64,000 nucleotides of DNA from Longimicrobiales bacterium. Its GTDB lineage: Bacteria; Gemmatimonadota; Gemmatimonadetes; Longimicrobiales; Gaopeijiaceae. Position 1 is the stretch's first letter, and each line of letters begins with the position of its first letter. Positions 1,974-63,892 of the stretch are shown piece by piece. Location: contig OZ220732.1 of NCBI GenBank assembly GCA_965116905.1, positions 1 to 64,000 on the forward strand, given 5' to 3'. Under the pieces are notes generated by a model. It had not been told where the DNA came from, did not search any database, and worked only from the letters and a program-made list of their open reading frames with translations. Made by a program: the position numbers and the translations under genes.

Positions 1974-1980
1974 TGGAAGA

Positions 1981-3429: not shown

Positions 3430-3528
3430 GGAGCCTGAGGTCGGCGACGAGGTGCCGGGCCGTGTCCCGGGTTGCCCTGCGCGCGGAAGCCGCCGTAGAC
3501 TTTTTCTTCCGGATCAATCCGGCGTTCG

Positions 3529-3604: not shown

Positions 3605-5253
3605 TGACGCGCCTTCGCACGACCACGAGTCTGTTCGCAACCCTTGCCACCGTAGCCCTGGCCGCCTCGTGCGGCGGCGATGGCGGAACAACGGTTCCTC
3701 CGGTTGATCCCCCCGCACCACAGAACCGTGCTCCCGTCGCGCAGGGCTCGATCGGGGCCCTCACCATCGCCGTCGGAGCTTCGGTCACGACGAACGTCGC
3801 GTCGAACTTCAACGATCCCGATGGGGATGCGCTCACCTATTCGGCAGCCACTTCGGACGCCGCCGTGGCCACCGCGACCGTGTCGGGCAGTCAGGTCACC
3901 GCCACCGGCGTGGCAGCCGGCACCGCGACCATCACGATCACGGCGCGCGACCCGGGCGGCCTGACCGCGACGCAGACGATGGCGGTCACGGTGGAGGCCG
4001 TGAACAGCCCGCCAACGATCACCGGCACGGTGGAGGACCAGACCCTGAATGTCGGCGATACCTTCACCGCCGATGTCGCCGGGTTGTTCACCGACCCCGA
4101 CGGAGACGCGCTCACCTTCGCCGCGACCAGTTCCGACGCGGCCGTGGCAACCGCATCGGTTTCCGGAGACACGTTGACGGTCGAGGCGGTAGCGGAGGGC
4201 AGCGCTAGCGTGACGGTCTCGGCCACGGATACCGGGGACCTCTCCGCCGAGGTCGCCTTCACGGTGACGGTCGAGCAGCCCAACCGGGCGCCGGAGGTTG
4301 CCGACGCGATCCCGGCGCAGACGCTGCAGATCGGCGACACCGTCCCGCTGGTCGTGTCCATGTACTTCACGGATCCCGACGGCGATGAACTCAGCTACGA
4401 AGCCGTCAGTTCGGTGACGGACGTCGTCGAGGCGTTGGCGATGGGCGACACGGTGCAGCTCGCGGCCATCACGGCGGGCAGCGCGACCGTGGCCGTGACC
4501 GTCAGCGACCCCGAGGGGCTGACCGCCGAGCAGGAGTTCTCGGTCACGGTGCAGCCGCCCGCGAACCGCGCGCCCGAGGAGGCCGACTCGATTCCCGCTC
4601 ACGACGTGGTCGTGGACAGCGCGGTCGTACTCGACATGTCCGCGTACTTCACCGATCCCGACGGCGACGATCTGACGTACTCCGCCGAAACCTCGGATGC
4701 GGCGATCGCGACCGCCTCCGTCGACGGGTCCGTGGTGACCACCACCGGCGTTTCGGCGGGCGAGGAAGGCGTACAGATGGTGACGCTGATGGTGACGGCA
4801 ACCGATCCGGCGGGGCTCTCCGTTACGCAGGAGGTGGACGTGGTCGTGTCCTCCGAGAGCTATGAGGTGTGGGAAGGGCTGGCGATCAATGACATGGGGG
4901 TGGTCACGGCCTTGGGAGGGACGATACAGCTCACCGGATGCTTCAGCCTGCAGCTAGTGAACGTGTTCGCCAGTAATCTGGGGATACAGACGATCCACTG
5001 GACCGAATGGCAGATCAGAAAGGGCACCGGGTGGGTGCGGGTTCCCGGGACCCGAAAAGAGCCGACGACGGAGGACGAGGACGCGATCTGCGGATACGAG
5101 GACCTTGCGGACCGCGAAGACGGGACCCCCGGTCCCGCGCCCGCGGGTACCTACCGCGTCGTTGGCGAGGTAACAATCGCCGAAGAGGGGATGGACCCCG
5201 TCCGCATCCGTCGGAAGACCGAGAACGAGTTCACGCACGATCCCGGGAGCTGA
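3604..5253 (+). CDS. Lipoprotein with 4 cadherin-like/Ig repeats and an unknown C-terminal domain
   Basis: Lipobox LAASC. Four ~90-aa repeats N(R/S)xP...F.DPDGD.L(T/S)(Y/F)...AT/DP.GL. The C-terminal ~130 aa has two Cys and no motif I recognise. Confidence 0.85.
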   Translation: MTRLRTTTSLFATLATVALAASCGGDGGTTVPPVDPPAPQNRAPVAQGSIGALTIAVGASVTTNVASNFNDPDGDALTYSAATSDAAVATATVSGSQVTATGVAAGTATITITARDPGGLTATQTMAVTVEAVNSPPTITGTVEDQTLNVGDTFTADVAGLFTDPDGDALTFAATSSDAAVATASVSGDTLTVEAVAEGSASVTVSATDTGDLSAEVAFTVTVEQPNRAPEVADAIPAQTLQIGDTVPLVVSMYFTDPDGDELSYEAVSSVTDVVEALAMGDTVQLAAITAGSATVAVTVSDPEGLTAEQEFSVTVQPPANRAPEEADSIPAHDVVVDSAVVLDMSAYFTDPDGDDLTYSAETSDAAIATASVDGSVVTTTGVSAGEEGVQMVTLMVTATDPAGLSVTQEVDVVVSSESYEVWEGLAINDMGVVTALGGTIQLTGCFSLQLVNVFASNLGIQTIHWTEWQIRKGTGWVRVPGTRKEPTTEDEDAICGYEDLADREDGTPGPAPAGTYRVVGEVTIAEEGMDPVRIRRKTENEFTHDPGS

Positions 5254-42719: not shown

Positions 42720-42776
42720 TGAATGCGAAATGTCTACACTATGCTTTCGTCATTCCAGCACGGAGGCGCGGCACCA

Positions 42777-43181
42777 ATGGGCGTACTCACCATTCGCAAC
42801 GTCGACGACGAGGTGATCGCCGCGCTCAAGGCGCGTGCCAAGGCGAATCACCGCTCGCTGGAGGGTGAACTTCGCCACCTGCTGAGCCGCTTTGCGACCC
42901 CCCACTCCAACCTCGGCCTGATGCGTGAGCGGGCTCGCGCCGCCTACGGTGCGCCGCCGGCAGCCCAACACCCTACGCCCGACTCACCGTCCGAGGCCAC
43001 CGATCCACCTCCGGACGCCGCGGCCGAGCGAGTGGAATGGCTGGGCGCGATGCGGGATGTCACCGCGATCAAGGGCGACATTATCTCGCCTGTGTCCGAG
43101 CTGTCCGACTGGGACGTGTACCGTTCGGACGCGACATTCGGGGAGGAGTCCAGCGAAGAGGAGGGCGACGAGCCGTCGTGA
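42777..43181 (+). CDS. FitA-like RHH antitoxin with an extended C-terminus
   Basis: MGVLTIRNVDDEV..ALKARAKANHRSLEGELRHLL; coupled (GTGA) to the PIN gene. Confidence 0.85.
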   Translation: MGVLTIRNVDDEVIAALKARAKANHRSLEGELRHLLSRFATPHSNLGLMRERARAAYGAPPAAQHPTPDSPSEATDPPPDAAAERVEWLGAMRDVTAIKGDIISPVSELSDWDVYRSDATFGEESSEEEGDEPS

Positions 43182-43573
43182 CCCTGCTGCTGGACACCCA
43201 CATCTGGATCTGGAGCGTAGGGAGCCCGGCTCGCATCTCGACCAGTGCCCGCGACGCTCTGTCGAACCCGGCAAACACATTGGCGCTTTCCCCTGTGACC
43301 GTCTGGGAGGCGCTTCTTCTCGCGGAGAAGGGCCGGGTGGATCTTGCTCCCGATCCCTGGAGCTGGATCCGCATGGCCCTCGCGAACAGGACCATGCGGG
43401 AGTTCCCCCTGACGCACGAAGTCGCGCTCCGCAGCCGCAGCGTCCGCCTTCCCCATGACGACCCGGCCGACCGCTTCATCGCGGCGACCGCCATGGTTCA
43501 CGGGCTCACGCTGGTGACCGCCGACAGGACACTCCTCGGCTGTCCCGATATCAGGGTGTTGCCGGGCGCCTGA
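43178..43573 (+). CDS. vapC: VapC-family PIN toxin
   Basis: LLLDTHIWIW, SPVTVWE, HDDPADRFIAATA, LVTAD. Confidence 0.92.
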   Translation: MTLLLDTHIWIWSVGSPARISTSARDALSNPANTLALSPVTVWEALLLAEKGRVDLAPDPWSWIRMALANRTMREFPLTHEVALRSRSVRLPHDDPADRFIAATAMVHGLTLVTADRTLLGCPDIRVLPGA

Positions 43574-50173: not shown

Positions 50174-50941
50174 TCAGCTCTCGTCCCCTCCTTCGGCGAC
50201 GCTTGGCTTGAGCCGCTCGCTAATGATCCTCGCGGTCCTTCTGAGGTTCCAGATGGCTCCCAAGTCTTCGTCCGCGTCCCCTCCGATCTTCGCCAGAAAC
50301 GCTATCGCGACATCACGGTCAAATGACCTGGTCTCGCTCGTCGGATCTATCTTGGATTCGATGAAGAGCCCGGCTTCGACCAGCGATTCGAGACGTCCCA
50401 CGAACTGCGCGGTTCTCATCTCGTTGATGACTTCGTTCATCAGGTGGCTATTCCAGAAGCCCATTTCCACGACGTTCAGAGCGGCGTGCACAGAATCCAA
50501 CCCCGCCTTGAGATCTCCGTACCTAACCGGTCTTCCTCGCTGCCACCTGTCTCGGTGCGCGATATGATGGTTCCTCCGATCCCTGGCCGACTCTGCGTGC
50601 TTTTTCGCATCGGAAACATGTTTTTCCACCTCCTTCTGGAGGTGGGGATGCTTGCGAAGGAATCGCGGCAGGTGATGGACCGATACGCTACGCTTCCCCG
50701 TATCCGTTAGCCGGGTCAGCCTGAGAATCAGGTCGTTCGACAGCACCTCTTGAAGGTCGCCGACGAACGCGGCTCCGAGGGCGTTGAGCATGGCCACTCG
50801 CTTCTCATCCTTACCGAACATTTCCATCAGCTCTTGGTAGCGATCAAGAGCCATGGTCCATTCCTCGTGTATGGCATCGAGCATCTCACCGACCTCAGGT
50901 CCCAGCTTGTCGATGTATTTCTGTCTGGTCTTGTCCGACAT
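50174..50941 (-). CDS. HEPN-superfamily (AbiU2-like) putative ribonuclease
   Basis: All-helical; LILRLTRLTD...SV..L and RRNHHIAH (Rx4-6H) motifs; GGGAGAGG upstream of ATG 50941. Confidence 0.7.
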   Translation of the reverse strand: MSDKTRQKYIDKLGPEVGEMLDAIHEEWTMALDRYQELMEMFGKDEKRVAMLNALGAAFVGDLQEVLSNDLILRLTRLTDTGKRSVSVHHLPRFLRKHPHLQKEVEKHVSDAKKHAESARDRRNHHIAHRDRWQRGRPVRYGDLKAGLDSVHAALNVVEMGFWNSHLMNEVINEMRTAQFVGRLESLVEAGLFIESKIDPTSETRSFDRDVAIAFLAKIGGDADEDLGAIWNLRRTARIISERLKPSVAEGGDES

Positions 50942-51396
50942 GGCGGTTTTCCTCTCCCTCAGCGCACGGAGTCGGGGCCCTCGGGCTACGCTCGCCGCTG
51001 ACCCGGCGAAGCAGAGTGCATGGACCGCCTTGGTGGTTGTCATCCTGGCAGGCGGTGGCGATCAGGGTTCCAAGCTAAGCTAGCGAATCTGGGGTTGCCG
51101 TCGGACGGAGACTCCACCCCTGGGTCTCGACCAACCTCCGTCAGGCCAGGATGGGCCAGCCACGCGAAGAAGCCCGTCTGCCGATTGACTCGGTCGCCCG
51201 CTCCGTGACTGCACTCGCTGGTGCCAACCAGCGCCGCCTCGTGCCTGGTAGGTTATCTTGCGAGGGCTCCCCCGCGACGCGGGCGAAGCTCATCAAAGAC
51301 CACCTCGCGACCCACGAGCGGATCGTGGACACGCGCCCGGTGCGGTTCAGTGCCCCCGAAGTTGGATTGCCACAACCAGACCTGAGAAACCGACGG

Positions 51397-52119
51397 ATGG
51401 ACCAAATCAACGAATTCGTGGACGAACGGCAGAAGGCGTGGTGCATCCAGTGCGGCGCGGGGATCGGGGACGTGGACACCAACCGGGACCACGTGCCGTC
51501 CAAGGTTCTCCTGCGCGAGCCCTACCCGGAGAACCTTCCCGTCGTCGACACCTGCGTAGACTGCAACAACGGGTTTTCGGCGGACGAGGAATACCTGCAC
51601 CTGTTCCTGCACTGCGTACTCAGGGGCTCCACGGACCCGGAACAGCACTCGGACGCCAAGACCGCGCGGGCGTTACAGCGCCACAGGAAACTCCGCGCGA
51701 GGATCGAGCGATCAAAGACGGAGTACCGGACGATTGGCGGCGAGACGCGTTGTGTCTGGGAGCCCGAAGAGGAGAGAGTAGAGCGTATCGTGGTGAAGAA
51801 CGCGCGCGGTCACGTCTTCTACGAATACGGCGAACCGATGCTGAGCGAACCGCAACACGTCCGGACCCTGCCCCTAGTGGCGATGCCGACGGCGGCGCGC
51901 GAAGGATTCGAAAACGACCGGATGGCCGGAGAACTGGCAGGTTGGCCCGAAGTGGGCAGTCGGATGATGACGCGCGTGCTCACCGGGCAGGATATGCATG
52001 ACGGCTGGGTCATCGTACAGGACGGTGTCTATCGGTTCCGCCTACAGCAGCGCTCCGGGATCGTCGTCAGGTCCGTTCTCCTCGAATACCTCGGGACCGA
52101 GGTGTACTGGAGCGACTAA
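51397..52119 (+). CDS. HNH endonuclease-like protein with zinc-binding CxxC pairs
   Basis: CIQC...RDHVP...NLPVV..CVDCNN, followed by an unknown C-terminal domain. Confidence 0.75.
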   Translation: MDQINEFVDERQKAWCIQCGAGIGDVDTNRDHVPSKVLLREPYPENLPVVDTCVDCNNGFSADEEYLHLFLHCVLRGSTDPEQHSDAKTARALQRHRKLRARIERSKTEYRTIGGETRCVWEPEEERVERIVVKNARGHVFYEYGEPMLSEPQHVRTLPLVAMPTAAREGFENDRMAGELAGWPEVGSRMMTRVLTGQDMHDGWVIVQDGVYRFRLQQRSGIVVRSVLLEYLGTEVYWSD

Positions 52120-52516: not shown

Positions 52517-54655
52517 ATGACCGCGCCCAACCTGAACTGGATTGCCAACTACATCTGGGGCATCGCTGACGACGTGCTCCGCGATGTCTACGTGCGCGGC
52601 AAGTACCGCGACGTGATCCTGCCGATGACTGTGCTCCGGCGGCTGGACGCCGTGCTGGAGCCCACCAAGCAGGCCGTCCTCGACATGAAGGCCACGCTGG
52701 ATGCAGCCGGGGTCGCGAACCAGGACGCCGCGCTTCGGCACGCGGCAGGGCAGGCATTCCACAACACCTCGAAGTTCACGCTCAGAGACCTGCGGGCGCA
52801 GCCGAAGCAGCAACAACTCAAGGCCGATTTCGTGGACTATCTCGACGGATTCTCACCCAACGTGCGGGACATCCTCGACAACTTCGAGTTCCGAAACCAG
52901 ATCCAGAAGCTCTCCAGGGCCGACGTGCTGGGGGCGCTGATCGAGAAACTGACGTCGCCGGACATCAACCTAGGTCCCGATCCGGTAATGGATACCGACG
53001 GCAGGGTCCGGCATCCTGGCCTCGACAACCACGGCATGGGCACGGTCTTCGAGGAACTGATCCGGCGCTTCAACGAGGAGAACAACGAAGAGGCGGGCGA
53101 GCACTTCACGCCGCGCGACGCCGTGACTCTGATGGCGAAGCTGGTATTCCAGCCCCTTGCCAACCGGATCGAGTCCGGCACGTACCTGCTCTACGACGGG
53201 GCTTGCGGGACAGGCGGTATGCTGACCGTGGCCGAGGACGTGCTGCACGGGCTCGCAGAGGGACGGGGCAAGGAGGTGTCCACGCATCTGTACGGCCAGG
53301 AGATCAACGCAGAGACCTATGCGATCTGTAAGGCCGACTTGCTGCTGAAGGGCGACGGCGAGGCCGCCGACAACATCGTGGGCGGCCCGGAGCACTCGAC
53401 GCTCTCGAACGACGCGTTTCCGACGCGGGAGTTCGACTTCATGCTCTCGAACCCGCCGTACGGGAAGAGTTGGAAGACCGACCTTGAGCACATGGGCGGC
53501 AAGAAGGGGATGCGGGATCACCGCTTCCTGATCGAGCACGCGGGCGACCCAGAGTATTCGCTGGTCACCCGCTCCAGCGACGGCCAGATGCTGTTCCTCG
53601 CCAACAAGCTGTCGAAGATGAAGCGGGACACGCCGCTCGGCAGCCGGATCGCTGAAGTCCACAACGGAAGCTCGCTGTTCACCGGGTCGGCGGGCCAGGG
53701 CGAGAGCAACATCCGGCGGTGGATCATCGAGAACGACTGGCTGGAGGCCATCGTCGCGCTGCCGCTTAACATGTTCTACAACACGGGGATTGCCACCTAC
53801 GTCTGGGTGCTCACGAACCGCAAGTCCGAGCACCGGCGGGGCAAGGTGCAGTTGATCGACGCGACGAAGTGGTTCCGTCCGCTCAGGAAGAACCTGGGGA
53901 AGAAGAGCTGCGAACTCGGACCGGAGGACATTGAGCGGATCTGCCGGACGTTCCTCGACTTCGAGGAGACGGAGGAGAGCCGCATTTTCGACAACGAGGT
54001 GTTCGGTTACTGGAAGGTGACCGTCGAGCGGCCACTCCGCCTGAAGGTGGATCTGTCGCCCGCGCGCTGCCTCGTGTTGTCCGAGACGTGCCGCCAAGCG
54101 GGAGAGGGGCCGCTCGCGAACTCCGTCGAGCGGGTGGCCGAGACACTCGGCCCAGGGCCTCACCTAGACTTCAACGTCTTTCTGAAGGCGCTCAAGGCCG
54201 ACATGTCTGGTCGTCGCGCGAAGCTGACGGCTAAGCGCAGGAAGCTGTTGCAGACTGTGCTGGCGGAGCGGGACGAGACGGCGGAGCCGGTAGTCAAGAG
54301 GGTTTACCGTCGCGGAACTGCGCCCGACCCAATCCGGGGACTGTTCGAGTCTGGGGAAGGCCCCAATCCTAGCGTCGTCGAGTACGAACCTGACAGGGTG
54401 CTCCGCGACACCGAGCAGGTTCCGTTCCTAGAAGAGGGCGGAATCGAGGGCTTCCTGCGACGGGAGGTGCTTCCCTATGCCGGGCCCGCGTGGTATGTCG
54501 CCAAGAGAGTGAAGACCGGCTACGAGATCAGCTTCAACCGGTACTTCCACAAGCCCGAGCCGATGCGGACGCTCGATGAGATCAGGGGCGACATTTTGGC
54601 GGTCGAGCGGGAGACCGAGGGACTGCTGCTTGAGATACTGGGACGGCCCAAATGA
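52517..54655 (+). CDS. hsdM: Type I RM N6-adenine methyltransferase subunit M
   Basis: IWGIADDVLR, AGEHFTPRD, YDGACGTGGML (motif I), LSNPPYG (motif IV), MFYNTGIATY, GYEISFNRYF. Confidence 0.96.
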   Translation: MTAPNLNWIANYIWGIADDVLRDVYVRGKYRDVILPMTVLRRLDAVLEPTKQAVLDMKATLDAAGVANQDAALRHAAGQAFHNTSKFTLRDLRAQPKQQQLKADFVDYLDGFSPNVRDILDNFEFRNQIQKLSRADVLGALIEKLTSPDINLGPDPVMDTDGRVRHPGLDNHGMGTVFEELIRRFNEENNEEAGEHFTPRDAVTLMAKLVFQPLANRIESGTYLLYDGACGTGGMLTVAEDVLHGLAEGRGKEVSTHLYGQEINAETYAICKADLLLKGDGEAADNIVGGPEHSTLSNDAFPTREFDFMLSNPPYGKSWKTDLEHMGGKKGMRDHRFLIEHAGDPEYSLVTRSSDGQMLFLANKLSKMKRDTPLGSRIAEVHNGSSLFTGSAGQGESNIRRWIIENDWLEAIVALPLNMFYNTGIATYVWVLTNRKSEHRRGKVQLIDATKWFRPLRKNLGKKSCELGPEDIERICRTFLDFEETEESRIFDNEVFGYWKVTVERPLRLKVDLSPARCLVLSETCRQAGEGPLANSVERVAETLGPGPHLDFNVFLKALKADMSGRRAKLTAKRRKLLQTVLAERDETAEPVVKRVYRRGTAPDPIRGLFESGEGPNPSVVEYEPDRVLRDTEQVPFLEEGGIEGFLRREVLPYAGPAWYVAKRVKTGYEISFNRYFHKPEPMRTLDEIRGDILAVERETEGLLLEILGRPK

Positions 54656-56058
54656 GTGTCAACGGCCTCGGGTCCTATCCGGCCTACCGGGACTCAGACG
54701 TGCGGTGGATGGGAATGCTCCCCGACCATTGGCGCCTAGTGCGGGCCAAGTGGCTGTTCACCAAGATGGATCGTGCCGTTAGGCCGAGTGACGAGGTCGT
54801 TACCTGCTTCCGCGATGGCACGGTGACGCTCCGAAAAAACCGACGAGAACTGGGGTTCACCGAATCCCTGAAAGAGATCGGCTACCAAGGGGTCCGCCGC
54901 GGTGATCTTGTCATTCATGCGATGGATGCCTTCGCCGGTGCTTGTGGTGTCTCCGATTCGGACGGGAAGAGTACGCCCGTGTATTCGGTCTGTACCCCTA
55001 AGGATGAGGGAGTGAGCTCCCGATACTACGCGTTTTGCGTTCGCGAGATGGCTCGGAGTCGGTGGATCATGGCTCTTTCGAGAGGCGTGCGGGAGCGATC
55101 GACCGACTTTCGGTTCGCGGCCTTTGGAAACCAACTGGTCCCAGCACCGTCGGGTCGAGAACAGCGCGCCATCGTCCTCTATCTAGGCTCCGCCGACCGC
55201 CGCATCCGACGCTACATCCGTGCGAAGGAGCGGCTGATCGAGCTATTGGAGGAGTGGAAGCGGGCGCTGATCCACGCGGTCGTCACGGGCCGGATCGATG
55301 TCCGAACCGGCCAACCCTATCCCGCCTACCAAGACTCCGGCGTCGAATGGCTGGGGAAGGTGCCAGAGCATTGGGAGAGACGTCGGTTGAAGACCCTCCT
55401 CCGCGTCGTCGACCGGCGGTCCAGTACTGGAGATGAGACGCTGCTGTCGTTGCGGCGAGACCACGGCGTGGTGGTCTACTCTGAGCACTTCACCCGGCCG
55501 CCACAAGGCAGAACCCTCGTAGGCTACAAGCAGCTTGCTGTAGGACAGCTCGTGGTTAATCGCCTACAGGCCAACAACGGACTTGTGTTCTGTTCGGGTG
55601 TCGACGGTCTCGTCAGCCCCGACTACTCCGTGTTCGATAAGACCGCACCGCTCCAGATGAAGTACTTGAGCGATCTGTTGAGGACATCGACCTATCGTTC
55701 GCACTTCCGGCGGGTTTCCAAGGGCTTGGGAACGGGGACCGCTGGTTTCCTCCGTCTGTATGATGACGTGTTCCTTTCAACGACCGTGTTTCTGCCGCCT
55801 GAACACGAACAGGTTTCCGTACTGGAGTACGTCAGGATCGAGGTCAGAAAGATCGAGGGATTGATAGCGGCGGCAGCAGGTGGTTTGGAGTTGCTTGACG
55901 AGTACCGCACCCGCCTCATCGCCGATGTCGTGACCGGCAAGCTCGACGTACGGGAGGCTGTGGTCCGTTTCCCGGGCGACAATTCCCCCGTCGAGTCAGA
56001 CGACCGGAAGCCCGCGTCGCCCCAAGCTGTGGCCCGAACGCAGGCGCTGTCACGATGA
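54652..56058 (+). CDS. hsdS: Type I RM specificity subunit S
   Basis: Two copies of YPAY.DS.V.W.G..P.HW plus two P...EQ helical spacers ending AVVTGRID/DVVTGKLD, flanking two TRDs; ATGA overlap with hsdM. Confidence 0.93.
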   Translation: MSVNGLGSYPAYRDSDVRWMGMLPDHWRLVRAKWLFTKMDRAVRPSDEVVTCFRDGTVTLRKNRRELGFTESLKEIGYQGVRRGDLVIHAMDAFAGACGVSDSDGKSTPVYSVCTPKDEGVSSRYYAFCVREMARSRWIMALSRGVRERSTDFRFAAFGNQLVPAPSGREQRAIVLYLGSADRRIRRYIRAKERLIELLEEWKRALIHAVVTGRIDVRTGQPYPAYQDSGVEWLGKVPEHWERRRLKTLLRVVDRRSSTGDETLLSLRRDHGVVVYSEHFTRPPQGRTLVGYKQLAVGQLVVNRLQANNGLVFCSGVDGLVSPDYSVFDKTAPLQMKYLSDLLRTSTYRSHFRRVSKGLGTGTAGFLRLYDDVFLSTTVFLPPEHEQVSVLEYVRIEVRKIEGLIAAAAGGLELLDEYRTRLIADVVTGKLDVREAVVRFPGDNSPVESDDRKPASPQAVARTQALSR

Positions 56059-58253
56059 GTGCCCGCTCCACCCCCGAGCGCCGCGACAACTCGCCGAGCA
56101 TCTCGTCACCTGCGCCTAATGCCCCGCTCTCCTTCCGATTCCACGCCCGCGCTTTGGCTGCATTAGGCCGCGACTTGGTCACCAACGATGTGGTCGCCGT
56201 CATGGAGCTTGTCAAGAACGCCTACGACGCGATGGCTCGGAGGGTTGCGGTACGAATCCGCAGAGACGACACCAGTGGCGGCGATGTCTACATCGAAATC
56301 GAGGATGACGGACACGGCATGGACTACGACACCATCGCCAACGTGTGGTGCGTCGTCGCGACACCGTTTCGAGCCAGGCGACCGATTGCGACGGCCGGTA
56401 GGCGAACGCGGCAGGTTACCGGGGAGAAGGGACTCGGACGCCTCTCGGCCGCCAGGCTCGGGGGAACCCTTGAAATGATCACCCGTGTCGCGGGCGGTCC
56501 CTCGCTCCGCTTCTCACTGGATTGGGATGCACTCCTGAACGCCGACCGACTCGCCGAAGTAGCGTTCCCAGTCGAGAAAGCCCTACCAGAGCAGTTCGGC
56601 GGCAGCCACGGAACGCGAATTCGAATTGGTGCTCTGCGGAGCGTTTGGACGGAGGATCGGATTCGCGAGTTGCGGCAAGGGCTCGCTCGTCTGGTATCCC
56701 CGTTCGCGGGCGCTGAGGACTTCCGGATTGTTCTGCACACAGACGACACCGATGAGACAGCCCCGCTGGAGATCGCCGCACCCGAATTCATGTCCGCACC
56801 GAAATACTCGATGACAGGACGGGTTGACCGTGAGGGGATGATCCGGGCCGAGTACCGTTTTCGACCGCTTGACATCCGCCCCGGTCGGGACCGCTCGGTC
56901 TGCGAGGCCGCGCCATCGACCGATAACCCTCGCCGTGGGGTCGGCCGGGACAACTACGCAGCATCGGCCTGTGGGCCGTTCGAGTTCGAGATTCGAGCAT
57001 GGGATCTCACGCGTGACGACACCCGGGATATCGCGGAGCACTATGACGAACAACGCAGCGCTGTTCGAGCTGCAATAAGGTCTCACTACGGGATCTCGGT
57101 TTACCGCGACCATGTTCTTGTGCTGCCCAAGTCAGAAAAGTCCTACGACTGGCTCGGCCTCGACCTTAGACGAGTCAGTCGGGTCGGCCCTCGTCTCAGC
57201 ACTAGCCAGATTGTGGGATCTGTGCGGATTACGAAAGCTGACAATCCTGGTCTTGTGGACACCAGCGACCGCGAGGGCCTGGTGTCCAATGCTGCGGCGG
57301 AGGTATTCCGCGAGCGAATGGAACGGATCGTCCAACTGCTCGAAGTCGAGCGTAGCGCGGATCGCTTGGAAGAACGGGATAAAGGGCCGGCAGTTGACCT
57401 GTTCGCGAGGCTTAACGCAGAAGCCCTAGTTGAGGGACTGGAGGAAGTCCGCGACGGCAAGCGAGGCATCGGCGCCGCCATCAAGCTTGCCGAACGACAC
57501 AATCGCGAGCTAGAGGGAACGCGTGCAGCGATCGAGAGACGCTTCGGCTACTATAGCCGATTGGCGGTGATCGGCACCATCGCGCAGATGGTGATCCATG
57601 AGATACGAAACCGCACCTCCGTGATCGGCCCGGCGCTGAAGACGGCGGGGAAACTGGCTGGCCGTGTCGCGGACGCCACGTTCAAACGAGCGGCTGACAT
57701 GGCGTGGAGGTCCCTGGAAGCCCTGGACGCGCTTGCCGACCGGTTTGCTCCGCTCGCAAGCCGGGGATACCGGCCGGGACGCCGTTCCTCGCTGCTGGAG
57801 GAGTCCATCGCACGGTGCTTCGAGATGCAGGCCGGACAAGTTCGCAGTGGCAGGATCGCCGTAGAACTGCCGCCCGACACCCGCACGGTGGTGCGCATCG
57901 ATCCGGGCGAGTTGGACACGGTGATGACGAACCTTCTGCTGAATGCTCTATACTGGATTCGGCGCACTGACGGCGAGCGCCTGCTCCGCGTGAGTTTAGA
58001 GCCCGGACCGTCGCCGGATCGCATCTCGGTACGCTTTGACGACTCGGGGCCGGGGATAGACCCGGATGATGCGGAGCGCGTTTTCTGGCCGGGCGTAACC
58101 CGGAAGGCAGACGGGTTCGGAATGGGTCTGACCGTCGCCGCCGAGTTGGTGCGCGGCCGCGGGGGCACGATGCGCACGGAAGTGCCTGGAAAGTTGGGGG
58201 GAGCGACATTCGAGTTCGATCTGCCGCTGGTTCCATCGAAGAAGGAGACGTGA
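56055..58253 (+). CDS. GHKL (MORC/MutL/Hsp90-like) ATPase fused to a cytoplasmic histidine kinase
   Basis: N-terminal GHKL motifs ELVKNAYDA, DDGHGM, GEKGLGRLS, GTRI; S5-like region GISVYRD...DWLGLD...TSDREGL; coiled coil; H-box HEIRN; second ATP-binding domain NLLLNA, DSGPGI, GFGMGL, GATF. No TM helix. Confidence 0.9.
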   Translation: MSARSTPERRDNSPSISSPAPNAPLSFRFHARALAALGRDLVTNDVVAVMELVKNAYDAMARRVAVRIRRDDTSGGDVYIEIEDDGHGMDYDTIANVWCVVATPFRARRPIATAGRRTRQVTGEKGLGRLSAARLGGTLEMITRVAGGPSLRFSLDWDALLNADRLAEVAFPVEKALPEQFGGSHGTRIRIGALRSVWTEDRIRELRQGLARLVSPFAGAEDFRIVLHTDDTDETAPLEIAAPEFMSAPKYSMTGRVDREGMIRAEYRFRPLDIRPGRDRSVCEAAPSTDNPRRGVGRDNYAASACGPFEFEIRAWDLTRDDTRDIAEHYDEQRSAVRAAIRSHYGISVYRDHVLVLPKSEKSYDWLGLDLRRVSRVGPRLSTSQIVGSVRITKADNPGLVDTSDREGLVSNAAAEVFRERMERIVQLLEVERSADRLEERDKGPAVDLFARLNAEALVEGLEEVRDGKRGIGAAIKLAERHNRELEGTRAAIERRFGYYSRLAVIGTIAQMVIHEIRNRTSVIGPALKTAGKLAGRVADATFKRAADMAWRSLEALDALADRFAPLASRGYRPGRRSSLLEESIARCFEMQAGQVRSGRIAVELPPDTRTVVRIDPGELDTVMTNLLLNALYWIRRTDGERLLRVSLEPGPSPDRISVRFDDSGPGIDPDDAERVFWPGVTRKADGFGMGLTVAAELVRGRGGTMRTEVPGKLGGATFEFDLPLVPSKKET

Positions 58254-59398
58254 TGCGCCTCAGAGTGCTCGTAATCGACGACGACGAAGCGGTGCGCGAG
58301 AGGGTTCGCATGACTCTCGAGACTGCTATCGCACAACCACCGGAGCAGGAGTGGGAAGTCTTCGACTATGGCTTCGAAGGCGTGCGTGACTCTTTGCTTG
58401 CCATCCGTCCCGACGTGGTGATCCTGGACTTGGTGGATGGCGAACCACCTGACGGTCAACCGCAAGGCAACGTGCGCTTCCGCGAGATCCGGGACACATG
58501 GTTCTGTCCGGTAGTGGTGTACTCGGCGTTTCCGAACACGCAGGATTTCGGCCACCCTCTTGTCCACACCGTGGTGAAGGCCGCGGATGCCATGGAGAAG
58601 GTCCTGATGTGCCTGGCTGAGCTTGCTCCGATGGCAAGAGCGATACGATCCGTCCACGACGAGTTCGACTCACGAATCAGGAAGTCTCTGCACGACTCAG
58701 TAGGCACTCTCCGCGAGCAGATCGGGGAGGAAAGCGATGATGAGCCCGTCCTTCGCCGGGCGGTTCGCCGGCTGGTCGCAGCAGGAGTTGATGTTGGTGA
58801 TGTCGGAGCTGAGGGCATGGCTCCTTGGGAGCGATTTGTCATCCCGCCGCTGGGCGGCCACCTTCTGATCGCCGACATTCTGAAGAAAACGGGTGCGCAG
58901 TGGCACAGCGAGGAGTCTTTTCGGGTCGTGCTTACTCCTTCGTGCGATCTCGTGCCAGGAGAGTCGGGCCAGCCCAAGGCCCACCGCGTGCTGGTGGCTT
59001 GCTGTGAACAGCTAACGCGGCTCGGGAGGATTCAACTGAAGCCCGGGGAACGGCTGAAGGGAAAGAGGGAAACGCGGGTCCGGGGGTTCCTGAACGATGG
59101 AATGGTGGATGGTTTCCTGCCCATTCCCAAGTTCCAGGGTCATGTGCCGCTGATGGTCGCGAATCTCAAGGCACTTGAGTTGATTGAGTGGCAGAGGGTA
59201 TCGCCCGTGCCAATCGGCGGGAATGAGGAGGCGCAGGACTTCGAGTTCGAGCGCGTGGCTTCCACCGACAGCCCGTTTCGCGAAATGGTAGTGTGGGCCT
59301 ACCTGCGCGTGACCGGTCGACCGGGACTCCCCGAGATTGACGTGCAGCAGTGGTTGACTGATATCTCTGATCACTTCGAGCAAGAGGTGCATCCGTGA
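58250..59398 (+). CDS. Response regulator: receiver domain plus unknown C-terminal domain (LTPSCDL motif)
   Basis: VLVIDDD acidic pocket, VVILDL phospho-acceptor Asp, VVVYSA Ser, VVK Lys; ~250-aa C-terminus with no HTH recognised; GTGA overlap with the kinase. Confidence 0.85.
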   Translation: MMRLRVLVIDDDEAVRERVRMTLETAIAQPPEQEWEVFDYGFEGVRDSLLAIRPDVVILDLVDGEPPDGQPQGNVRFREIRDTWFCPVVVYSAFPNTQDFGHPLVHTVVKAADAMEKVLMCLAELAPMARAIRSVHDEFDSRIRKSLHDSVGTLREQIGEESDDEPVLRRAVRRLVAAGVDVGDVGAEGMAPWERFVIPPLGGHLLIADILKKTGAQWHSEESFRVVLTPSCDLVPGESGQPKAHRVLVACCEQLTRLGRIQLKPGERLKGKRETRVRGFLNDGMVDGFLPIPKFQGHVPLMVANLKALELIEWQRVSPVPIGGNEEAQDFEFERVASTDSPFREMVVWAYLRVTGRPGLPEIDVQQWLTDISDHFEQEVHP

Positions 59399-60423
59399 AG
59401 GCGATCGATCTCTTCTGTGGTGCCGGGGGACTCACGCTCGGACTGAGGCGCGCGGGCTGGGACGTTCTTGTCGGCATCGATGTCGATGAGGCCGTCGGCG
59501 AGACCTATCGGCGCAACAATCCCAACACCGGGTTTCTGGCAGCCGACCTGCGATCCGTGACCGAAGAGGACATATTTTCGTTGGCGGGCAATACCCCTCG
59601 CCGCGAGCTGCTCCTAGCGGGATGCGCCCCCTGTCAGCCCTTCTCCAAACAGCGACGACGGCGGGGGATAGCCCGATGTCCCGACGGTACACTTCTCGGT
59701 CAGTTCGCTCGCCTCGTGGTTGCATTGCGGCCTGGCGCGGTGCTGATGGAGAACGTCCCCGGCATCAGAACCGTGCCGGGATTCAGTTCCTTTCGGCGCT
59801 TTCTCAAGATCCTCCGCGATTGCGGGTACGGTTTTGAGCACTGCGTCCTCAACGCCTGCGACTTCGAGGTCCCGCAGCATCGCCGCCGGTGCGTACTGCT
59901 GGCCCTGCACGAGTTGGAGGCGAGGTTGCCGACACCGATCATGCGCGAGCCCGCCCAAGGTGGCGCGACCGTGCGTGCCAGCATCGGACGGTTTCCGGCC
60001 ATCGCGGCGGGCGAAGCTCACCGCTGCATCCCGAATCACGTCGCTGCGGGCCTGTCGCCGCTGAACTTGGAGAGAATACGGGCCACGCCTGCGGACGGCG
60101 GCAGCCGACGGAATTGGCCGGAACGCCTGACGCTCGACTGTCACCGCCGCACTCTCGGGTTCAGCGATGTCTACGGACGAATGTGGTGGGACCGCGTGGC
60201 CCCAACGCTCACCAGCCGGTGCAACAGCCTCTCGAATGGCAGGTTCGGCCACCCAGAGCAGGACCGAGCCATCAGCCTGCGGGAAGCAGCCGCGCTCCAG
60301 ACGTTTCCCGACGACTACGAGTTCTTCGGCACAAGGAACCGAATCGCCGGGTGGATCGGTAACGCCGTGCCCGTATCGTTTGCCGAGGCGCTGGGAACGG
60401 CGGCCATCAGGGCCGCTGCCTGA
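59395..60423 (+). CDS. dcm: DNA (cytosine-5)-methyltransferase
   Basis: DLFCGAGG (I), APCQPFS (IV), ENVPG (VI), PQHRRR (VIII), REAAALQTFP (IX), IGNAVP (X). Confidence 0.96.
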   Translation: MKAIDLFCGAGGLTLGLRRAGWDVLVGIDVDEAVGETYRRNNPNTGFLAADLRSVTEEDIFSLAGNTPRRELLLAGCAPCQPFSKQRRRRGIARCPDGTLLGQFARLVVALRPGAVLMENVPGIRTVPGFSSFRRFLKILRDCGYGFEHCVLNACDFEVPQHRRRCVLLALHELEARLPTPIMREPAQGGATVRASIGRFPAIAAGEAHRCIPNHVAAGLSPLNLERIRATPADGGSRRNWPERLTLDCHRRTLGFSDVYGRMWWDRVAPTLTSRCNSLSNGRFGHPEQDRAISLREAAALQTFPDDYEFFGTRNRIAGWIGNAVPVSFAEALGTAAIRAAA

Positions 60424-60426
60424 CAC

Positions 60427-60876
60427 TTGTCGGACAAAGCCGGAAGGGAACCGACGGCCGAGTCCGCACCGTCCCCAGAACGTAGCGCCAACATGGCCCG
60501 CATCGGCGCGAAAGACACGCGACCGGAGCTCGCGGTTCGGCGACTCCTCCATCGCTTGGGCTACCGCTACCGCCTTCACCGGGGTGATCTTCCTGGGCGG
60601 CCCGATATCTGCTTCCCCGGTCGTAGAAAGGCGATCTTCGTTCACGGCTGCTTTTGGCACCGGCACGACGGGTGCCGACGCACAACCACCCCGAAGACAC
60701 GCACTTCCTTCTGGAAAGACAAGTTCGAGAGGAACATCGTGCGCGACCGACTGAACCTGTCGGATCTTGGAAAGCTCGGGTGGGAAGCGATGGTGGTCTG
60801 GGAGTGCGAGACGACCGACCTTGAGGGGCTCGCGCCGCGCCTCGTGCGATTCCTCGATGGCGAATTGCCGAGATGA
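60427..60876 (+). CDS. vsr: Very short patch repair endonuclease
   Basis: RSANMARI..KDTRPE, LPGRPDI, IFVHGCFWH.H, FW..KF.RN..RD, VWECE. Confidence 0.96.
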   Translation: MSDKAGREPTAESAPSPERSANMARIGAKDTRPELAVRRLLHRLGYRYRLHRGDLPGRPDICFPGRRKAIFVHGCFWHRHDGCRRTTTPKTRTSFWKDKFERNIVRDRLNLSDLGKLGWEAMVVWECETTDLEGLAPRLVRFLDGELPR

Positions 60877-60892
60877 CATTACGTTGGATTCC

Positions 60893-63892
60893 ATGACCAC
60901 GGACACTTCCGAACGGAGCCTTGAACGCCTGATCTGCGAGGCGCTTACTGGTGATCCGTGCGAGCCGCCGTCGAGCGGAACGGTCGGTGAGCCGTCCCCC
61001 GGATACGGCGGCGTCGGCTGGTCTCCCGGTAACGGTCGCGACTACGACCGCGAGTACTGCGTCGACCTCGTCCAACTCCGCACCTTCCTCCACGCCACGC
61101 AGCCCGAATCCGCCCGCGCCCTCCGGCTCGCCGAGGACTGCGCGGCGCGCCGGAAGTTCCTGTCGCGGCTTCATGGCGAGATCAACAAGCGCGGCACCAT
61201 CGACGTGCTCCGGCGCGGCGTCAAGCGCGGCCCCCACGACCTGGAGCTCTTCCACGGCACCCCATCGGCCGGGAACGAGACCGCCCGGCGGCTGTTCGAG
61301 CTGAACCGCTTCACGGTCACCCGCCAGCTACGCTACAGCCGGAACGAGACCCAGCGCGCACTCGACATCGCGCTGTTCATCAACGGCCTTCCCGTCTTCA
61401 CCCTCGAACTCAAGAACAATCTCACGAAGCAGACGGTCCACGATGCCATCCGCCAGTACCAGAGAGATCGCGACCCGAGGGAGCCGCTCTTCCGGCTTGG
61501 ACGCTGCGTGGCGCACTTCGCGGTGGACGAGGGCGAGGTCCGCTTCTGCACCCACCTGGAGGGCAAAGCCTCCTGGTTCCTGCCGTTCAACCGAGGCTGG
61601 AACCAGGGAGCGGGCAACCCACCCAACCCGGACGGCCTCAAGACTGAGTACCTTTGGCGCGACGTGCTGGCCCGCGGGAGCCTGACGGACATCCTCGAAA
61701 ACTACGCCCAGATGTTGACCCCGAAGGACGCCAAGGCGGGGAGGAAGAAACGCATCCTGATCTGGCCCCGGTACCAGCAACTCGATGTGGTGCGCCGCCT
61801 GCTGGACGACGCGCGGCGTCACGGGGCCGGGAAACGATACCTGATCCAGCATTCAGCGGGCAGCGGCAAGAGCTATTCGATCGCATGGCTCGCCCACCAG
61901 ATGATCCCCCTCAAGAAGGACGGCAAGTCGGTCTTTGACTCGATCATCGTAGTCACCGACCGCAAGGTCCTCGATGGCCAGATCCACGACACGATCAAGC
62001 AGTACGCGCAGGTGGGATCGACGGTTGGGCATGCGGACAGGGCCGCCGACCTGAAAACCCTCATCGAGCAGGGCAAGAAGGTCATCATCTCAACGATCCA
62101 GAAGTTCCCGTTCATCCTCGACGAGATCGGGAGCGGGCACCGTCAGCGTAGCTTCGCGATCATCATCGACGAGGCGCATTCGAGCCAAGGCGGGAAGGCC
62201 GCTGGAGCGATGGCGGCCGCGCTCGGCGAGGCGGACGGCGAGGACGGGTACGAGACCTACGAGGACCGCGTCAACCACGAGATCGAGTCTCGGAAGATGC
62301 TCGACAACGCCAGCTATTTCGCCTTCACGGCCACGCCGAAGAACAAGACGCTGGAGCTGTTCGGCGAGCCCGATCCGCAGAGCGACGGCACGGTCAGGCG
62401 CCTTCCGGTCCACAACTACAGCATGAAGCAGGCGATCCAGGAAGGGTTCATCTTGGACGTGCTCGAACACTACACACCCGTCGAGAGCTACTACAGGCTC
62501 GCTAAGACGGTCGAGGAGGACCCGGAGTACGACGTCCGGAAGGCCGGTAAGAAGCTCCGGCGCTACGTCGAGGGCCACGAACACGCGATCCGGCTCAAGG
62601 CCGAGATCATGGTGGACCACTTCCACGAGCAGGTGATCGCCCAGCACAAGCTTGGAGGCAACGCGCGGGCGATGGTGGTCACGAACGGGATCGAGCGCGC
62701 GATCCAGTATTTCCACGCCATCCGAAACTACCTGACGGAGCGCAGGAGTCCTTACGAAGCCCTTGTCGCGTTCTCGGGCGAGCACGACTACGGGGGAGAC
62801 CGGGTGAGCGAGGCCAGCCTGAACGGCCTCCCCTCGTCGAAGATCCCAGAGACGTTCCGGGAGGACCCGCACCGGTTCCTCGTCTGCGCGGACAAGTACC
62901 AGACCGGCTACGACGAGCCGCTGCTGCACACCATGTACGTGGACAAGACGCTCTCGGGGATTAGGGCGGTCCAGACGCTTTCGCGCCTGAATCGGTCGCA
63001 CCCAGAGAAGCGAGACGTGTTCGTGCTCGACTTCCTGAACGACACCGAGACCATCACGAAGGCCTTCTCGGATTACTACCGGACCACGGTCCTGTCCGAC
63101 GAGACCGACCCCGACCGGCTCCACGACCTACAGGCCGACCTTGACGGTGCGCAGGTCTACTCTCCCGATCTGGTCCGGGCGTTCGTGAAGCTGTATCTGG
63201 ACGGCGCGGACCGAGATCGGCTCGACCCCATCCTCGATCGGTGCGTGGCGGTGTATCTCAAGGACTTGGACGAGGACGGGCAGGTCCGGTTCAAGGGCAG
63301 GGCCAAGGCGTTCGCGCGCGCCTACGCTTTCCTGTCCTCGATCCTCCCCTACAACAACCTGGGCTGGGAGGAGCGCTCGATCTTCCTGAACTTCCTGATC
63401 CCGAAGCTGCCGGCACCCGAGGAGCCCGATCTGTCGAAGGGCATCCTTGAGAAAATCGACATGGACAGCTACCGCGTCGAGAAGCATCAGATGCGGAAGA
63501 TCATCCTTGAGGACGAGGACTCGGAGATCGATCCGGTCAGCACGGGCGAGGGCGGCGGCAAGGGCGAGATCGAGACCGACCGCCTTTCAGCGATCATTGA
63601 GGAGTTCAACGACCTGTTCGGTGGAATCGAGTGGGGGGACCGCGACCGTGTCATCCAGACGGCCACCGTGGACATTCCGGCCTCGGTGGCGAAGGACGTA
63701 AGGTTCAAGAACGCGCGGCAGAACTCGGACAGGGCGAACGCCCGCATCGAGTCCGACAAGGCAACGGAGAGGGCGGTGCTTGAGGTCGTGCGGGACAACA
63801 CCCGACTCTTCAAGCTGTTCGCGGACAATCCAGACTTCCGGCGGTGGCTGGCGGACACGGCATTCAGGCTGGCCTACGAAGCGGCGGACTGA
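60893..63892 (+). CDS. hsdR: Type I RM restriction subunit R
   Basis: Nuclease DIALFINGLP...ELKN; Walker A HSAGSGKS; IIDEAHSSQ; FTATPK; KYQTGYDEP; QTLSRLNR. Confidence 0.96.
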   Translation: MTTDTSERSLERLICEALTGDPCEPPSSGTVGEPSPGYGGVGWSPGNGRDYDREYCVDLVQLRTFLHATQPESARALRLAEDCAARRKFLSRLHGEINKRGTIDVLRRGVKRGPHDLELFHGTPSAGNETARRLFELNRFTVTRQLRYSRNETQRALDIALFINGLPVFTLELKNNLTKQTVHDAIRQYQRDRDPREPLFRLGRCVAHFAVDEGEVRFCTHLEGKASWFLPFNRGWNQGAGNPPNPDGLKTEYLWRDVLARGSLTDILENYAQMLTPKDAKAGRKKRILIWPRYQQLDVVRRLLDDARRHGAGKRYLIQHSAGSGKSYSIAWLAHQMIPLKKDGKSVFDSIIVVTDRKVLDGQIHDTIKQYAQVGSTVGHADRAADLKTLIEQGKKVIISTIQKFPFILDEIGSGHRQRSFAIIIDEAHSSQGGKAAGAMAAALGEADGEDGYETYEDRVNHEIESRKMLDNASYFAFTATPKNKTLELFGEPDPQSDGTVRRLPVHNYSMKQAIQEGFILDVLEHYTPVESYYRLAKTVEEDPEYDVRKAGKKLRRYVEGHEHAIRLKAEIMVDHFHEQVIAQHKLGGNARAMVVTNGIERAIQYFHAIRNYLTERRSPYEALVAFSGEHDYGGDRVSEASLNGLPSSKIPETFREDPHRFLVCADKYQTGYDEPLLHTMYVDKTLSGIRAVQTLSRLNRSHPEKRDVFVLDFLNDTETITKAFSDYYRTTVLSDETDPDRLHDLQADLDGAQVYSPDLVRAFVKLYLDGADRDRLDPILDRCVAVYLKDLDEDGQVRFKGRAKAFARAYAFLSSILPYNNLGWEERSIFLNFLIPKLPAPEEPDLSKGILEKIDMDSYRVEKHQMRKIILEDEDSEIDPVSTGEGGGKGEIETDRLSAIIEEFNDLFGGIEWGDRDRVIQTATVDIPASVAKDVRFKNARQNSDRANARIESDKATERAVLEVVRDNTRLFKLFADNPDFRRWLADTAFRLAYEAAD

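Follow-up and report, generated by a model that had tools for sequence, protein, structure and literature searches.

The 64,000-nucleotide stretch analyzed here (positions 1 to 64,000 of contig OZ220732.1 from a Longimicrobiales bacterium, assembly GCA_965116905.1; hereafter the window) carries seven open reading frames (ORFs) on the forward strand, in which a type I system of restriction and modification (RM) is interleaved with a kinase-receiver pair and a cytosine methylation module. In order they encode HsdM, HsdS, a GHKL-histidine kinase, a receiver protein, Dcm, Vsr and HsdR, with ORF spans of 52517-54655, 54652-56058, 56055-58253, 58250-59398, 59395-60423, 60427-60876 and 60767-63892, respectively. 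We use the term cassette for the kinase, receiver protein, dcm and vsr genes, which lie between hsdS and hsdR. The junctions, as read from the sequence, comprise four 4-bp overlaps (ATGA at 54652 and 56055; GTGA at 58250 and 59395) followed by gaps of 3 bp between dcm and vsr (TTG at 60427) and 16 bp between vsr and hsdR (ATG at 60893). The TTG of vsr is the sole uncertain start, and the alignments of its relatives begin at residue 1 in four loci. All the catalytic motifs looked for in the translations are intact. An earlier interpretation of the locus made from the DNA letters (hereafter the sequence-only reading) had proposed this gene order, these coordinates, the 4-bp coupling and the intact motifs, all of which are borne out by the ORFs, the junction reads and family scans. 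A scan of the window for consensus promoters and terminators gave fewer matches than shuffled sequence.

The hsdM, hsdS and hsdR genes constitute a conventional type I RM operon, each product being recovered as the corresponding subunit. HsdM (712 residues; 52517..54655) is an N6-adenine methyltransferase matching N6_Mtase (PF02384, E 2.5e-48), HsdM_N (E 3.6e-23) and the PADLOC model MTase_I (PDLC03029, E 1.3e-243), with NPPY at residue 312 and the S-adenosylmethionine motif DGACGTGG at 227; its TIGR00497 score of 94.5 lies under the equivalog cut-off of 242.75. The specificity subunit HsdS (468 residues; 54652..56058), whose gene shares the first ATGA overlap with hsdM, has no Pfam match at E<=0.01 and is recognized by the PADLOC Specificity_I models (best E 1.2e-68), which cover residues 4-219 and 225-435, i.e. 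the two target-recognition halves. The restriction subunit HsdR (999 residues; 60893..63892, within the ORF from 60767 and likely starting at the ATG at 60893) combines the Pfam domains HSDR_N, ResIII, SWI2_SNF2 and T1R_D3-like, matches PADLOC REase_I (E 2.8e-45) and TIGR00348 (E 9e-58; 196 bits, under the cut-off of 284.55), and displays the nuclease motif ELK at residue 172, GSGKS at 323 and DEAH at 426.

Dcm (342 residues; 59395..60423) is a C5-cytosine DNA methyltransferase (PF00145, E 2.1e-53; TIGR00675, E 3.9e-43, over the cut-off) with the motifs FCGAGG, PCQ containing the catalytic C80, and ENV containing E119; C80 is kept in 78/78 relatives. Its putative target-recognition region (residues 171-290) is conserved like the catalytic core, with a median of 56% for both across 73 loci when the window serves as the reference. 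C5 methylases that differ in specificity seldom show such constancy, which suggests that a single methylation motif may be shared family-wide. Vsr (149 residues; 60427..60876, TTG start) is a very-short-patch repair endonuclease that matches PF03852 (E 8.5e-28), TIGR00632 (E 3e-40, over the cut-off) and the PADLOC Vsr model, and shows an FVHGC motif. The double marking attributed to the locus by the sequence-only reading, with N6-methyladenine from HsdMS and 5-methylcytosine from Dcm, is supported.

The sensor kinase and the receiver protein

P0001, the soluble kinase with the sensor role (732 residues; 56055..58253), as delineated by Pfam, NCBIfam, phmmer and residue conservation, consists of a GHKL ATPase head (~29-228), a middle region (~165-490) and a DHp + CA core (487-731). 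Pfam detects HATPase_c_3 at residues 47-161 (E 1.2e-15) and HATPase_c at 616-725 (E 7.9e-24), and the core aligns with the DHp + CA of FixL/ZraS over 487-726 (phmmer, E 1.3e-15). The head bears E51/N55/D58, DDGHG at 84 and GEKGLG at 123; the H-box reads HEIRN, with H515 specified by the codon at 57597; and the CA domain contains N626/N630, DSGPG at 663 and GFGMGL at 687. When counted on tblastn alignments of related loci, as for all cassette proteins here, E51 and N55 are conserved in 57/57 relatives, H515 and E516 in 72/72, and the CA boxes nearly throughout (N626 76/76, N630 77/77, D663 76/78, G687/G689/G691 79/79).

By its sequence affinities, the head is a MutL/MORC (paraMORC)-type GHKL domain, whose closest named relatives are the heads of BbrUII/HgiDII and of the enzymes behind the PADLOC REase_II model. 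It matches NCBIfam NF050001 (BbrUII/HgiDII) at E 2.2e-23 over model positions 5-199 of 659, a match of 82.7 bits that is far under the 550-bit cut-off. The sole PADLOC match of the kinase is the type II restriction endonuclease model (REase_II), again over the head. The middle region of ~320 residues has no Pfam family and matches no nuclease family.

The receiver protein (P0002, 382 residues; gene ending at 59398) comprises an N-terminal receiver (REC) domain (residues 1-145; 58250..58684) joined by a helical linker (about residues 114-180) to a C-terminal effector domain (residues 203-359; 58856..59326). It has no Pfam match at E<=0.01, Response_reg being weak at E 0.046. A profile of the family recovers receiver domains among PDB sequences (E 3.7e-9), with only receiver matches among the best 60 listed, and residues 2-145 of the model superpose on receiver domains with Z 14.4 and a root-mean-square deviation (rmsd) of 3.2 over 129 aligned residues (Foldseek, VIA-align). 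The phospho-acceptor D60 (codon 58427) is kept in 88/88 relatives, position 10 carries D or E in 75/75, D11 is kept in 75/75, S/T92 in 91/91 and K110 in 90/92. The N-terminus is a receiver domain on the strength of the profile, the fold and this conserved D-D-D-S/T-K set. The response-regulator identity given to P0002 by the sequence-only reading is confirmed by these three lines of evidence, and the domain evidence from both proteins agrees with its pairing of a soluble ATPase-kinase with a receiver-effector. PADLOC returned no match for P0002, as had been expected of the receiver protein, and nothing but the type II enzyme model for the kinase.

Searches with the full-length P0002 model returned only receiver domains, and the C-terminal part was then folded alone. 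The model of residues 186-382, built with 69 aligned relatives, reached a predicted local distance difference test score (pLDDT) of 92.5 and a predicted template-modelling score (pTM) of 0.84. In a VIA-align comparison with 48,161 representative chains, the top 12 all belong to one superfamily, being MazF from several species, CcdB, Kid or the type III toxin CptN, with Z 10.0 to 6.1, while the thirteenth chain drops to Z 4.0; the best superposition (8zws_A, Z 10.0) has an rmsd of 2.7 and covers 102 of 105 toxin residues. All the matches listed by Foldseek are likewise toxins of the MazF/PemK family (E 2e-3, target template-modelling score 0.58-0.73). Thus, on structural modelling, the C-terminal domain has the fold of a MazF/CcdB/Kid-type barrel plus an insertion. 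The fold shared with MazF/Kid/PemK and CcdB (PDB 8zws, 4mzm, 1vub, 1m1f; Z 10.0-7.3 for 11 chains) covers nearly the whole toxin, whereas P0002 differs from these toxins in having ~55 inserted residues, a fusion to REC instead of an antitoxin partner, and other invariant residues. Nine polar residues of the effector domain, namely D209, C232, D233, S338, D340, S341, R344, E345 and R357, show no variation in 98/98 loci, a pattern suggestive of an active site. The domain has no PemK_toxin (PF02452) match in Pfam, and in the ESM Atlas both it and the kinase middle region fall in unnamed clusters only, with weak leads to PF19192 (0.75) and HATPase_c_3 (0.82) from the effector-domain and middle-region queries. 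A literature search, judged by titles and the openings of abstracts, recovered no relevant publication on a receiver-MazF fusion, and the predicted MazF/CcdB fold of the receiver protein's output domain is a new assignment.

Distribution of the cassette and its nesting in hsd operons

The receiver family is large: at E<=1e-3 it includes 585 proteins among the candidates scored in 90% clusters, and 647 representative clusters at 50% identity. We analyzed a close set of 21 loci, made up of the window and 20 loci from Gemmatimonadota, Acidobacteriota and Chloroflexota genomes and one Paracoccaceae bin, and a distant set of 80 metagenome loci with 27-42% receiver identity, only 17 of which reach >=5 kb beyond the cassette. 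Left out of trees and counts were L001-L009, being duplicates of the window or of other loci, and, from the dcm tree, the fragments L020 and L028. The L023 row of that tree was rejected as a long-branch artefact, because the second, 30%-identical methylase of the locus had been taken.

All-against-all clustering of the flanking ORFs in the close set yielded the following families common to at least three of the 21 loci: the receiver protein (21), dcm (20), the kinase (18), vsr (11), hsdM/S (8), hsdR (7) and an HNH-like gene (3). No further partner gene was found in three or more of the 21. Since the cassette manages without a separate gene for a nuclease, its effector has to reside in the kinase or in the receiver protein. 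Among the distant loci, all four cassette genes are visible in 34/80, in several orders. Kinase, receiver and dcm genes keep together across the 21 genome loci and the 80 metagenome loci, whether hsd genes are present or not; the recurrence of kinase and receiver homologs with dcm and vsr, envisaged in the sequence-only reading, is found in both sets. No hsd gene occurs in any of the 80, only 17 of which extend >=5 kb beyond the cassette, and seven close loci with full 10-kb flanks are likewise free of hsd genes. The flanks of those 17 distant loci (94 ORFs, scanned with Pfam) encode integrases, a serine recombinase, transposases, a conjugative coupling protein, AbiE genes, a GmrSD enzyme and an Eco57I-like enzyme, and no classical type I genes. 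In two distant loci, another ATP-dependent restriction system lies directly upstream, and on the same strand, of a vsr-first cassette: a type ISP enzyme in L094 (3932-7315) and a type III Res+Mod pair in L097 (1057-7255). Taken together, the comparison of loci indicates that the kinase-receiver-dcm-vsr cassette is an autonomous mobile defence-island module, and no dedicated component of the type I enzyme.

Three arrangements place hsd genes around or next to the cassette in 8/21 close loci: hsdM-hsdS-[cassette]-hsdR in the window, L018, L022 and L025; hsdM...[cassette]...hsdS...hsdR or hsdS-[cassette]...hsdR in L012 and L019; and a convergent hsd operon just downstream of the cassette in L010 and L011. 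Strongly supported branches of the kinase tree force at least three changes of the hsdM-hsdS-[cassette]-hsdR state: L018 groups with the stand-alone L016, L017 and L020, L022 and L025 group with the stand-alone L015, and L012 groups with the stand-alone L021. The dcm tree repeats the L012/L021 and L022/L025/L015 pairings. These phylogenies call for repeated entry of the cassette into hsd operons, or exit from them. The 4-bp coupling between hsdS and the kinase is special to the window, the gaps at this junction in relatives ranging from 137 to 1235 bp. The slots of hsd operons in relatives also house unrelated modules, with XRE, AbiEi and Fic genes in L012 (6043-6651, 12765-13457, 14915-15988) and an ImmA/IrrE peptidase with a DUF4411 protein in L019 (12031-13684). 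Because of the stand-alone cassettes, the changes in the trees and the unrelated modules in the same slots, hsd operons are most likely a recombination-prone landing site offering shared transcription, rather than a reflection of physical partnership with the type I enzyme.

A comparison of the window (56055-60876) with L018 (2778-7509) shows Dcm, Vsr and the start of HsdR to be 92%, 86% and 87% identical, respectively, against just 54% for the kinase and 46% for the receiver protein. The sensor-effector pair thus appears either to have been exchanged within one frame or to evolve much faster than its neighbors. Such repeated nesting in hsd operons, accompanied by the apparent exchange of the sensor-effector pair, is documented here as new. 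One metagenome-assembled genome (G028) has four receiver-gene matches on four contigs (L016, L018, L020 and L028), of which L020 and L028 may be halves of one locus; its copies give scope for recombination between cassettes.

Some loci show signs that the effector may be costly. The receiver gene is split by two different DDE transposases in two nested loci (L019:8391-10007 and L022:8036-9772), while L024 and L029 have a truncated receiver gene, no kinase and an intact dcm. This is the pattern of decay expected on loss of the harmful partner of a methylase, and is no proof of it. In L022 the hsdR match comes in two overlapping pieces, a possible frameshift.

The hsd-cassette operon is the cargo of an integrative mobilisable island. 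The cassette is present in just 3/36 other genomes of the same genus, and the region is marked by a fall in guanine-cytosine content, from 0.67-0.73 to 0.59-0.65. Directly downstream of hsdR in the same genome (L139, bases 63500-73500) follow genes for a MobC/NikA-like protein (1096-1596), a relaxase (1586-3157) and a tyrosine integrase (3064-4434), after which housekeeping genes come next. A tRNA scan of the 64-kb window found no tRNA.

Several further genes of the window merit mention. An HNH-like gene (orf322; 51151..52119, forward strand) ends 397 bp upstream of hsdM; its product, whose conserved part begins at ~residue 74, has a CxxC...DH...CxxCN pattern and a weak HNH_5 match in Pfam (E 0.021). 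As homologs lie directly beside the cassette in L026 (4581-5309), L027 (12196-12924) and L083 (6995-7726), orf322 is a possible accessory nuclease of the cassette. Next to it, at the low-GC edge of the island, is a reverse-strand gene for an AbiU2-type HEPN protein (50174..51043; PF18734 HEPN_AbiU2, E 1.4e-16), a further defence candidate. Elsewhere on the forward strand, the gene for a FitA-like ribbon-helix-helix antitoxin (42723-43181) overlaps that for a PIN-domain toxin (43037-43573).

Mechanistic interpretation and alternatives

We interpret the locus as a conventional type I operon in which an independent, mobile, methylation-linked phosphorelay defence cassette has come to reside, its output being a receiver-gated MazF/CcdB-fold protein; we give this reading a probability of roughly 0.55. 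Under this proposal, the GHKL head would sense the state of DNA or an infection cue on DNA, as suggested by its relatives in restriction enzymes, and ATP-driven dimerisation of the kinase would lead to autophosphorylation at H515. Phosphotransfer from H515 to D60 would then relieve the inhibition of the effector domain or dimerise it, and the effector would arrest growth or destroy nucleic acid, resulting in restriction-like or abortive defence. Alternatively, the same output might cause post-segregational killing if dcm is lost. Methylation by Dcm would mark self DNA, with Vsr repairing the T:G damage arising from deamination. Because H515, D60 and the residues that bind ATP are strictly conserved across loci, the parts serving ATP binding, autophosphorylation and phosphotransfer are under strict selection, with phosphotransfer itself deduced from this pattern.

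Several points weigh against this proposal. The consensus scan, with fewer matches than shuffles, found no promoter of the cassette's own, and the translational coupling to hsdS seen in the window sets the cassette apart from its relatives. The presence of hsd genes in 8/21 close loci, along with the type ISP and type III genes right next to the cassette in L094 and L097, might possibly signify a functional tie to ATP-dependent restriction enzymes. Insertion sequences and truncations are also typical of any decaying island gene. The cue attributed to the kinase is conjectural, and its middle region of ~320 residues has no assignable family. As for the effector, an hhalign comparison of the family profile with 25 MazF domains from related genomes revealed no similarity in sequence (E 0.32). 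The active site of MazF is an Arg/Thr pair, from which the invariant Cys/Asp/Ser/Glu/Arg set of P0002 differs, and the domain could be a binding module or a different enzyme built on the same barrel. A toxin-type fold is by itself no proof of toxicity; the toxicity and chemistry of P0002 are deductions from a structural model, and the defence activity of the cassette is likewise a prediction.

The foremost alternative is that the cassette is a guard of the type I enzyme, comparable to the anticodon nuclease PrrC: the kinase would sense a blocked HsdMSR complex (e.g. one inhibited by Ocr or ArdA) and in response trigger the effector with the toxin-type fold. PrrC, according to the available accounts, is embedded in the prrABD (EcoprrI) operon, where it is silenced by the type I complex (Loenen et al., 2014, PMC3874165), and is always linked to its silencing RM locus (PMC3458546). 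Its location inside the EcoprrI operon, invoked in the sequence-only reading, is correct as described there (PMC3874165), and the cassette occupies the same slot. Like prrC, it would amount to a potentially suicidal accessory gene for an effector, lodged within a type I hsd operon; the translational coupling to hsdS in the window, the adjoining hsd genes in three arrangements and the position right behind a type ISP or type III system in two distant loci all accord with such a role. Further, several gains and losses of nesting could mean selection for the association, and an RNase-type fold would parallel the action of PrrC on tRNA. Nevertheless, most loci are stand-alone, including the seven close loci with full flanks and the 80 distant loci, with the limit that only 17 of these hsd-free loci extend >=5 kb beyond the cassette. 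A pure guard would have no use for a methylase and a repair gene of its own, and the XRE, AbiEi, Fic and ImmA/DUF4411 genes in the hsd slots of L012 and L019 point to a general landing site. No domain in common with PrrC was found: whereas PrrC is, as described, a single ABC-ATPase/anticodon-nuclease protein, the cassette has four genes including its own methylase, usually occurs without hsd genes, and has no ABC-ATPase or anticodon-nuclease domain, the signalling domains found in it being GHKL, HK, REC and the MazF-type fold. The idea, raised in the sequence-only reading, that the cassette is an integral part of the type I enzyme, as a guard resembling PrrC or as a switch for HsdR, therefore finds little support, given hsd genes in 8/21 close and 0/80 distant loci, several nesting gains or losses and unrelated modules in the slots of relatives, and we regard it as unlikely. 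We consider it just as doubtful that the phosphorelay is a guard for ATP-dependent restriction enzymes which in this clade responds to the state either of the type I complex or of DNA left uncut by it, and gates an antitoxin-free MazF/CcdB-fold toxin. If it did, this would be a PrrC-like second line of defence whose components are different throughout, and its toxin would be the first of such a fold to come under the control of Asp phosphorylation.

Less probable still is a split restriction enzyme, in which DNA would be cut by the kinase middle region, by Vsr recruited through the MutL-like head or by the HNH protein, with the receiver merely tuning the reaction. The head is closest to those of real type II enzymes (NF050001 BbrUII/HgiDII and PADLOC REase_II), paraMORC ATPases are linked with Vsr-superfamily and HNH nucleases in an account that also cites a MutL-Vsr interaction (PMC2292703), and an HNH-like gene lies upstream of hsdM in the window and adjoins the cassette in L026, L027 and L083. 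On the other hand, Vsr was not found in five full-flank close loci (L010, L011, L013, L014 and L015), the HNH gene is seen in only 4 of about 100 loci, the kinase middle matches no nuclease family, and the most conserved polar constellation of the system lies in the receiver protein's C-terminal domain. Transcriptional control, whereby the kinase-receiver pair would switch on RM gene expression upon infection, as suggested by the speculation on RM-controlling signalling cascades in PMC8011034 and by the infection-induced reporters and reported winged helix of AbrC in the Ambrosia system (10.1101/2025.09.30.679545), is similarly improbable, for the output domain is a MazF/CcdB-type barrel without a helix-turn-helix and with nine invariant polar residues that look enzymatic, the would-be target genes are translationally coupled up- and downstream in one unit, and self-protection needs constitutive methylation.

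Returning to the independent phosphorelay cassette with a receiver-gated output, its wider interest is severalfold. Methylase-linked kinase-receiver cassettes are very common, yet only one system of the same plan has been bench-tested. The predicted toxin fold renders the effector testable by assays for RNA cleavage, gyrase poisoning and toxicity of the isolated domain, and for its control through phosphorylation of D60; if correct, it would represent a toxin restrained by a phosphorelay instead of an antitoxin. The repeated nesting in hsd operons and the position right behind type ISP and type III systems offer a testable case of whether modules in RM operons cooperate or hitch-hike. Finally, the near-constant recognition region of Dcm suggests a shared methylation motif that the sensor may itself read.

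Comparison with known systems

In terms of signalling logic, the cassette recalls Detocs, in which an infection-sensing kinase reportedly phosphorylates a receiver that is joined to a toxic effector; Detocs is said to have a third, buffer protein, a nucleosidase as effector and no methylase. The PADLOC scan gave no Detocs match for the kinase or P0002.

The GHKL head links the cassette to the paraMORC RM systems. Iyer, Abhiman & Aravind 2008 (PMC2292703) describe MORC-like GHKL ATPases in RM systems with cytosine methylases, Vsr and HNH nucleases. The cassette and the paraMORC/BbrUII/HgiDII systems, to the extent that the latter are covered in that account, share a MutL/MORC-type GHKL head with intact ATP motifs in the vicinity of a cytosine methylase, a Vsr-superfamily protein and an HNH protein. 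Whereas in the paraMORC families presented there nucleases, helicases or TIR domains accompany the GHKL+S5 units, by fusion or as partners, the head is here fused to a histidine-kinase transmitter.

The closest architectural counterparts are the HEF_HK (PF19191)/Response_reg_2 (PF19192) pairs, which Bellieny-Rabelo, Pretorius & Moleleki 2021 (PMC8011034) describe as resembling two-component systems. As presented there, a kinase with HATPase_c_3 + DHp + HATPase_c is accompanied by a neighboring receiver-like gene, a C5 methylase and Vsr, in many cases in the vicinity of type I/II RM systems, and the Discussion speculates on signalling cascades controlling RM systems. Our cassette shares with them the soluble kinase architecture, the His-Glu H-box, a receiver-like neighbor with an uncharacterised C-terminus, the C5 methylase and Vsr next door, and the sometimes nearby type I elements. 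The core of the window kinase matches kinases beside bona fide Response_reg_2 genes with BLASTP E 2e-10 and 4e-10; with the PF19192 model, true Response_reg_2 proteins were found in 4/301 alphaproteobacterial genomes. However, the PF19191 model finds no match in the kinase and none in its own genome at E<=1, while PF19192 finds none in P0002 at E<=10, none in its own genome at E<=1 and none in the 27 distant P0002 homologs scanned. P0002, at ~380 residues against ~525-635, is devoid of the long helical middle part of the Response_reg_2 proteins. Its C-terminal domain aligns with theirs by hhalign only locally, around Ser-Cys-Asp, at E 4.8e-5 with a probability of 68% over 38 columns (56 vs 37 sequences), or at E 3.5e-4 with only 4 sequences, and the effector domains of both have a local motif, ...G(D/T)I...hhhh(T/Q)(P/A)SCD.V, in common. 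Thus, going by these alignments, the P0002 cassettes appear to form a sister family of HEF_HK/Response_reg_2 rather than belonging to it. Among the literature citing these Pfam names, we found no experimental follow-up of the HEF_HK/Response_reg_2 pairs, going by titles and the openings of abstracts.

The bench-tested system of the same plan is Ambrosia, encoded in Pseudomonas aeruginosa as AbrR-AbrA-AbrB-AbrC-AbrD, which according to its preprint (bioRxiv 10.1101/2025.09.30.679545) blocks phages and needs every one of its genes. Its parts are described as an XRE regulator, an N6 methylase, a kinase-like ATPase, a receiver protein and an HNH nuclease (10.1101/2025.09.30.679545). In that account, the D60A mutation of the receiver abolishes protection, the kinase-like ATPase is required, infection induces reporters placed in the operon, and a winged helix is ascribed to AbrC (10.1101/2025.09.30.679545). 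Given PMC8011034 and Ambrosia, the suggestion of the sequence-only reading that the locus may be a new system is not supported: the architecture has already been described in the former, as that reading's own caveat about computationally noted neighborhoods had foreseen, and an RM-plus-two-component system has been validated against phages in the latter. Beside the HNH nucleases of Ambrosia and those in Response_reg_2 neighborhoods, the HNH-like gene next to the cassette has a familiar ring. On the available description, Ambrosia and the operon in the window both combine a DNA methylase, a kinase-like HATPase protein and a receiver whose Asp is D60. Ambrosia has a type IV HNH nuclease among its core parts, to which the gene 397 bp upstream of hsdM is a possible counterpart as judged by its motif and the HNH_5 match (E 0.021). 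The two systems differ in that the cassette methylase is of the C5 type, the N6 methylase present being HsdM, in that no XRE/HTH gene is found in the operon, and in that, going by the description of Ambrosia, a winged helix and transcription there contrast with the predicted MazF/CcdB-fold output here. By analogy, what would be the same plan of methylase, kinase and receiver works as a defence in Ambrosia.

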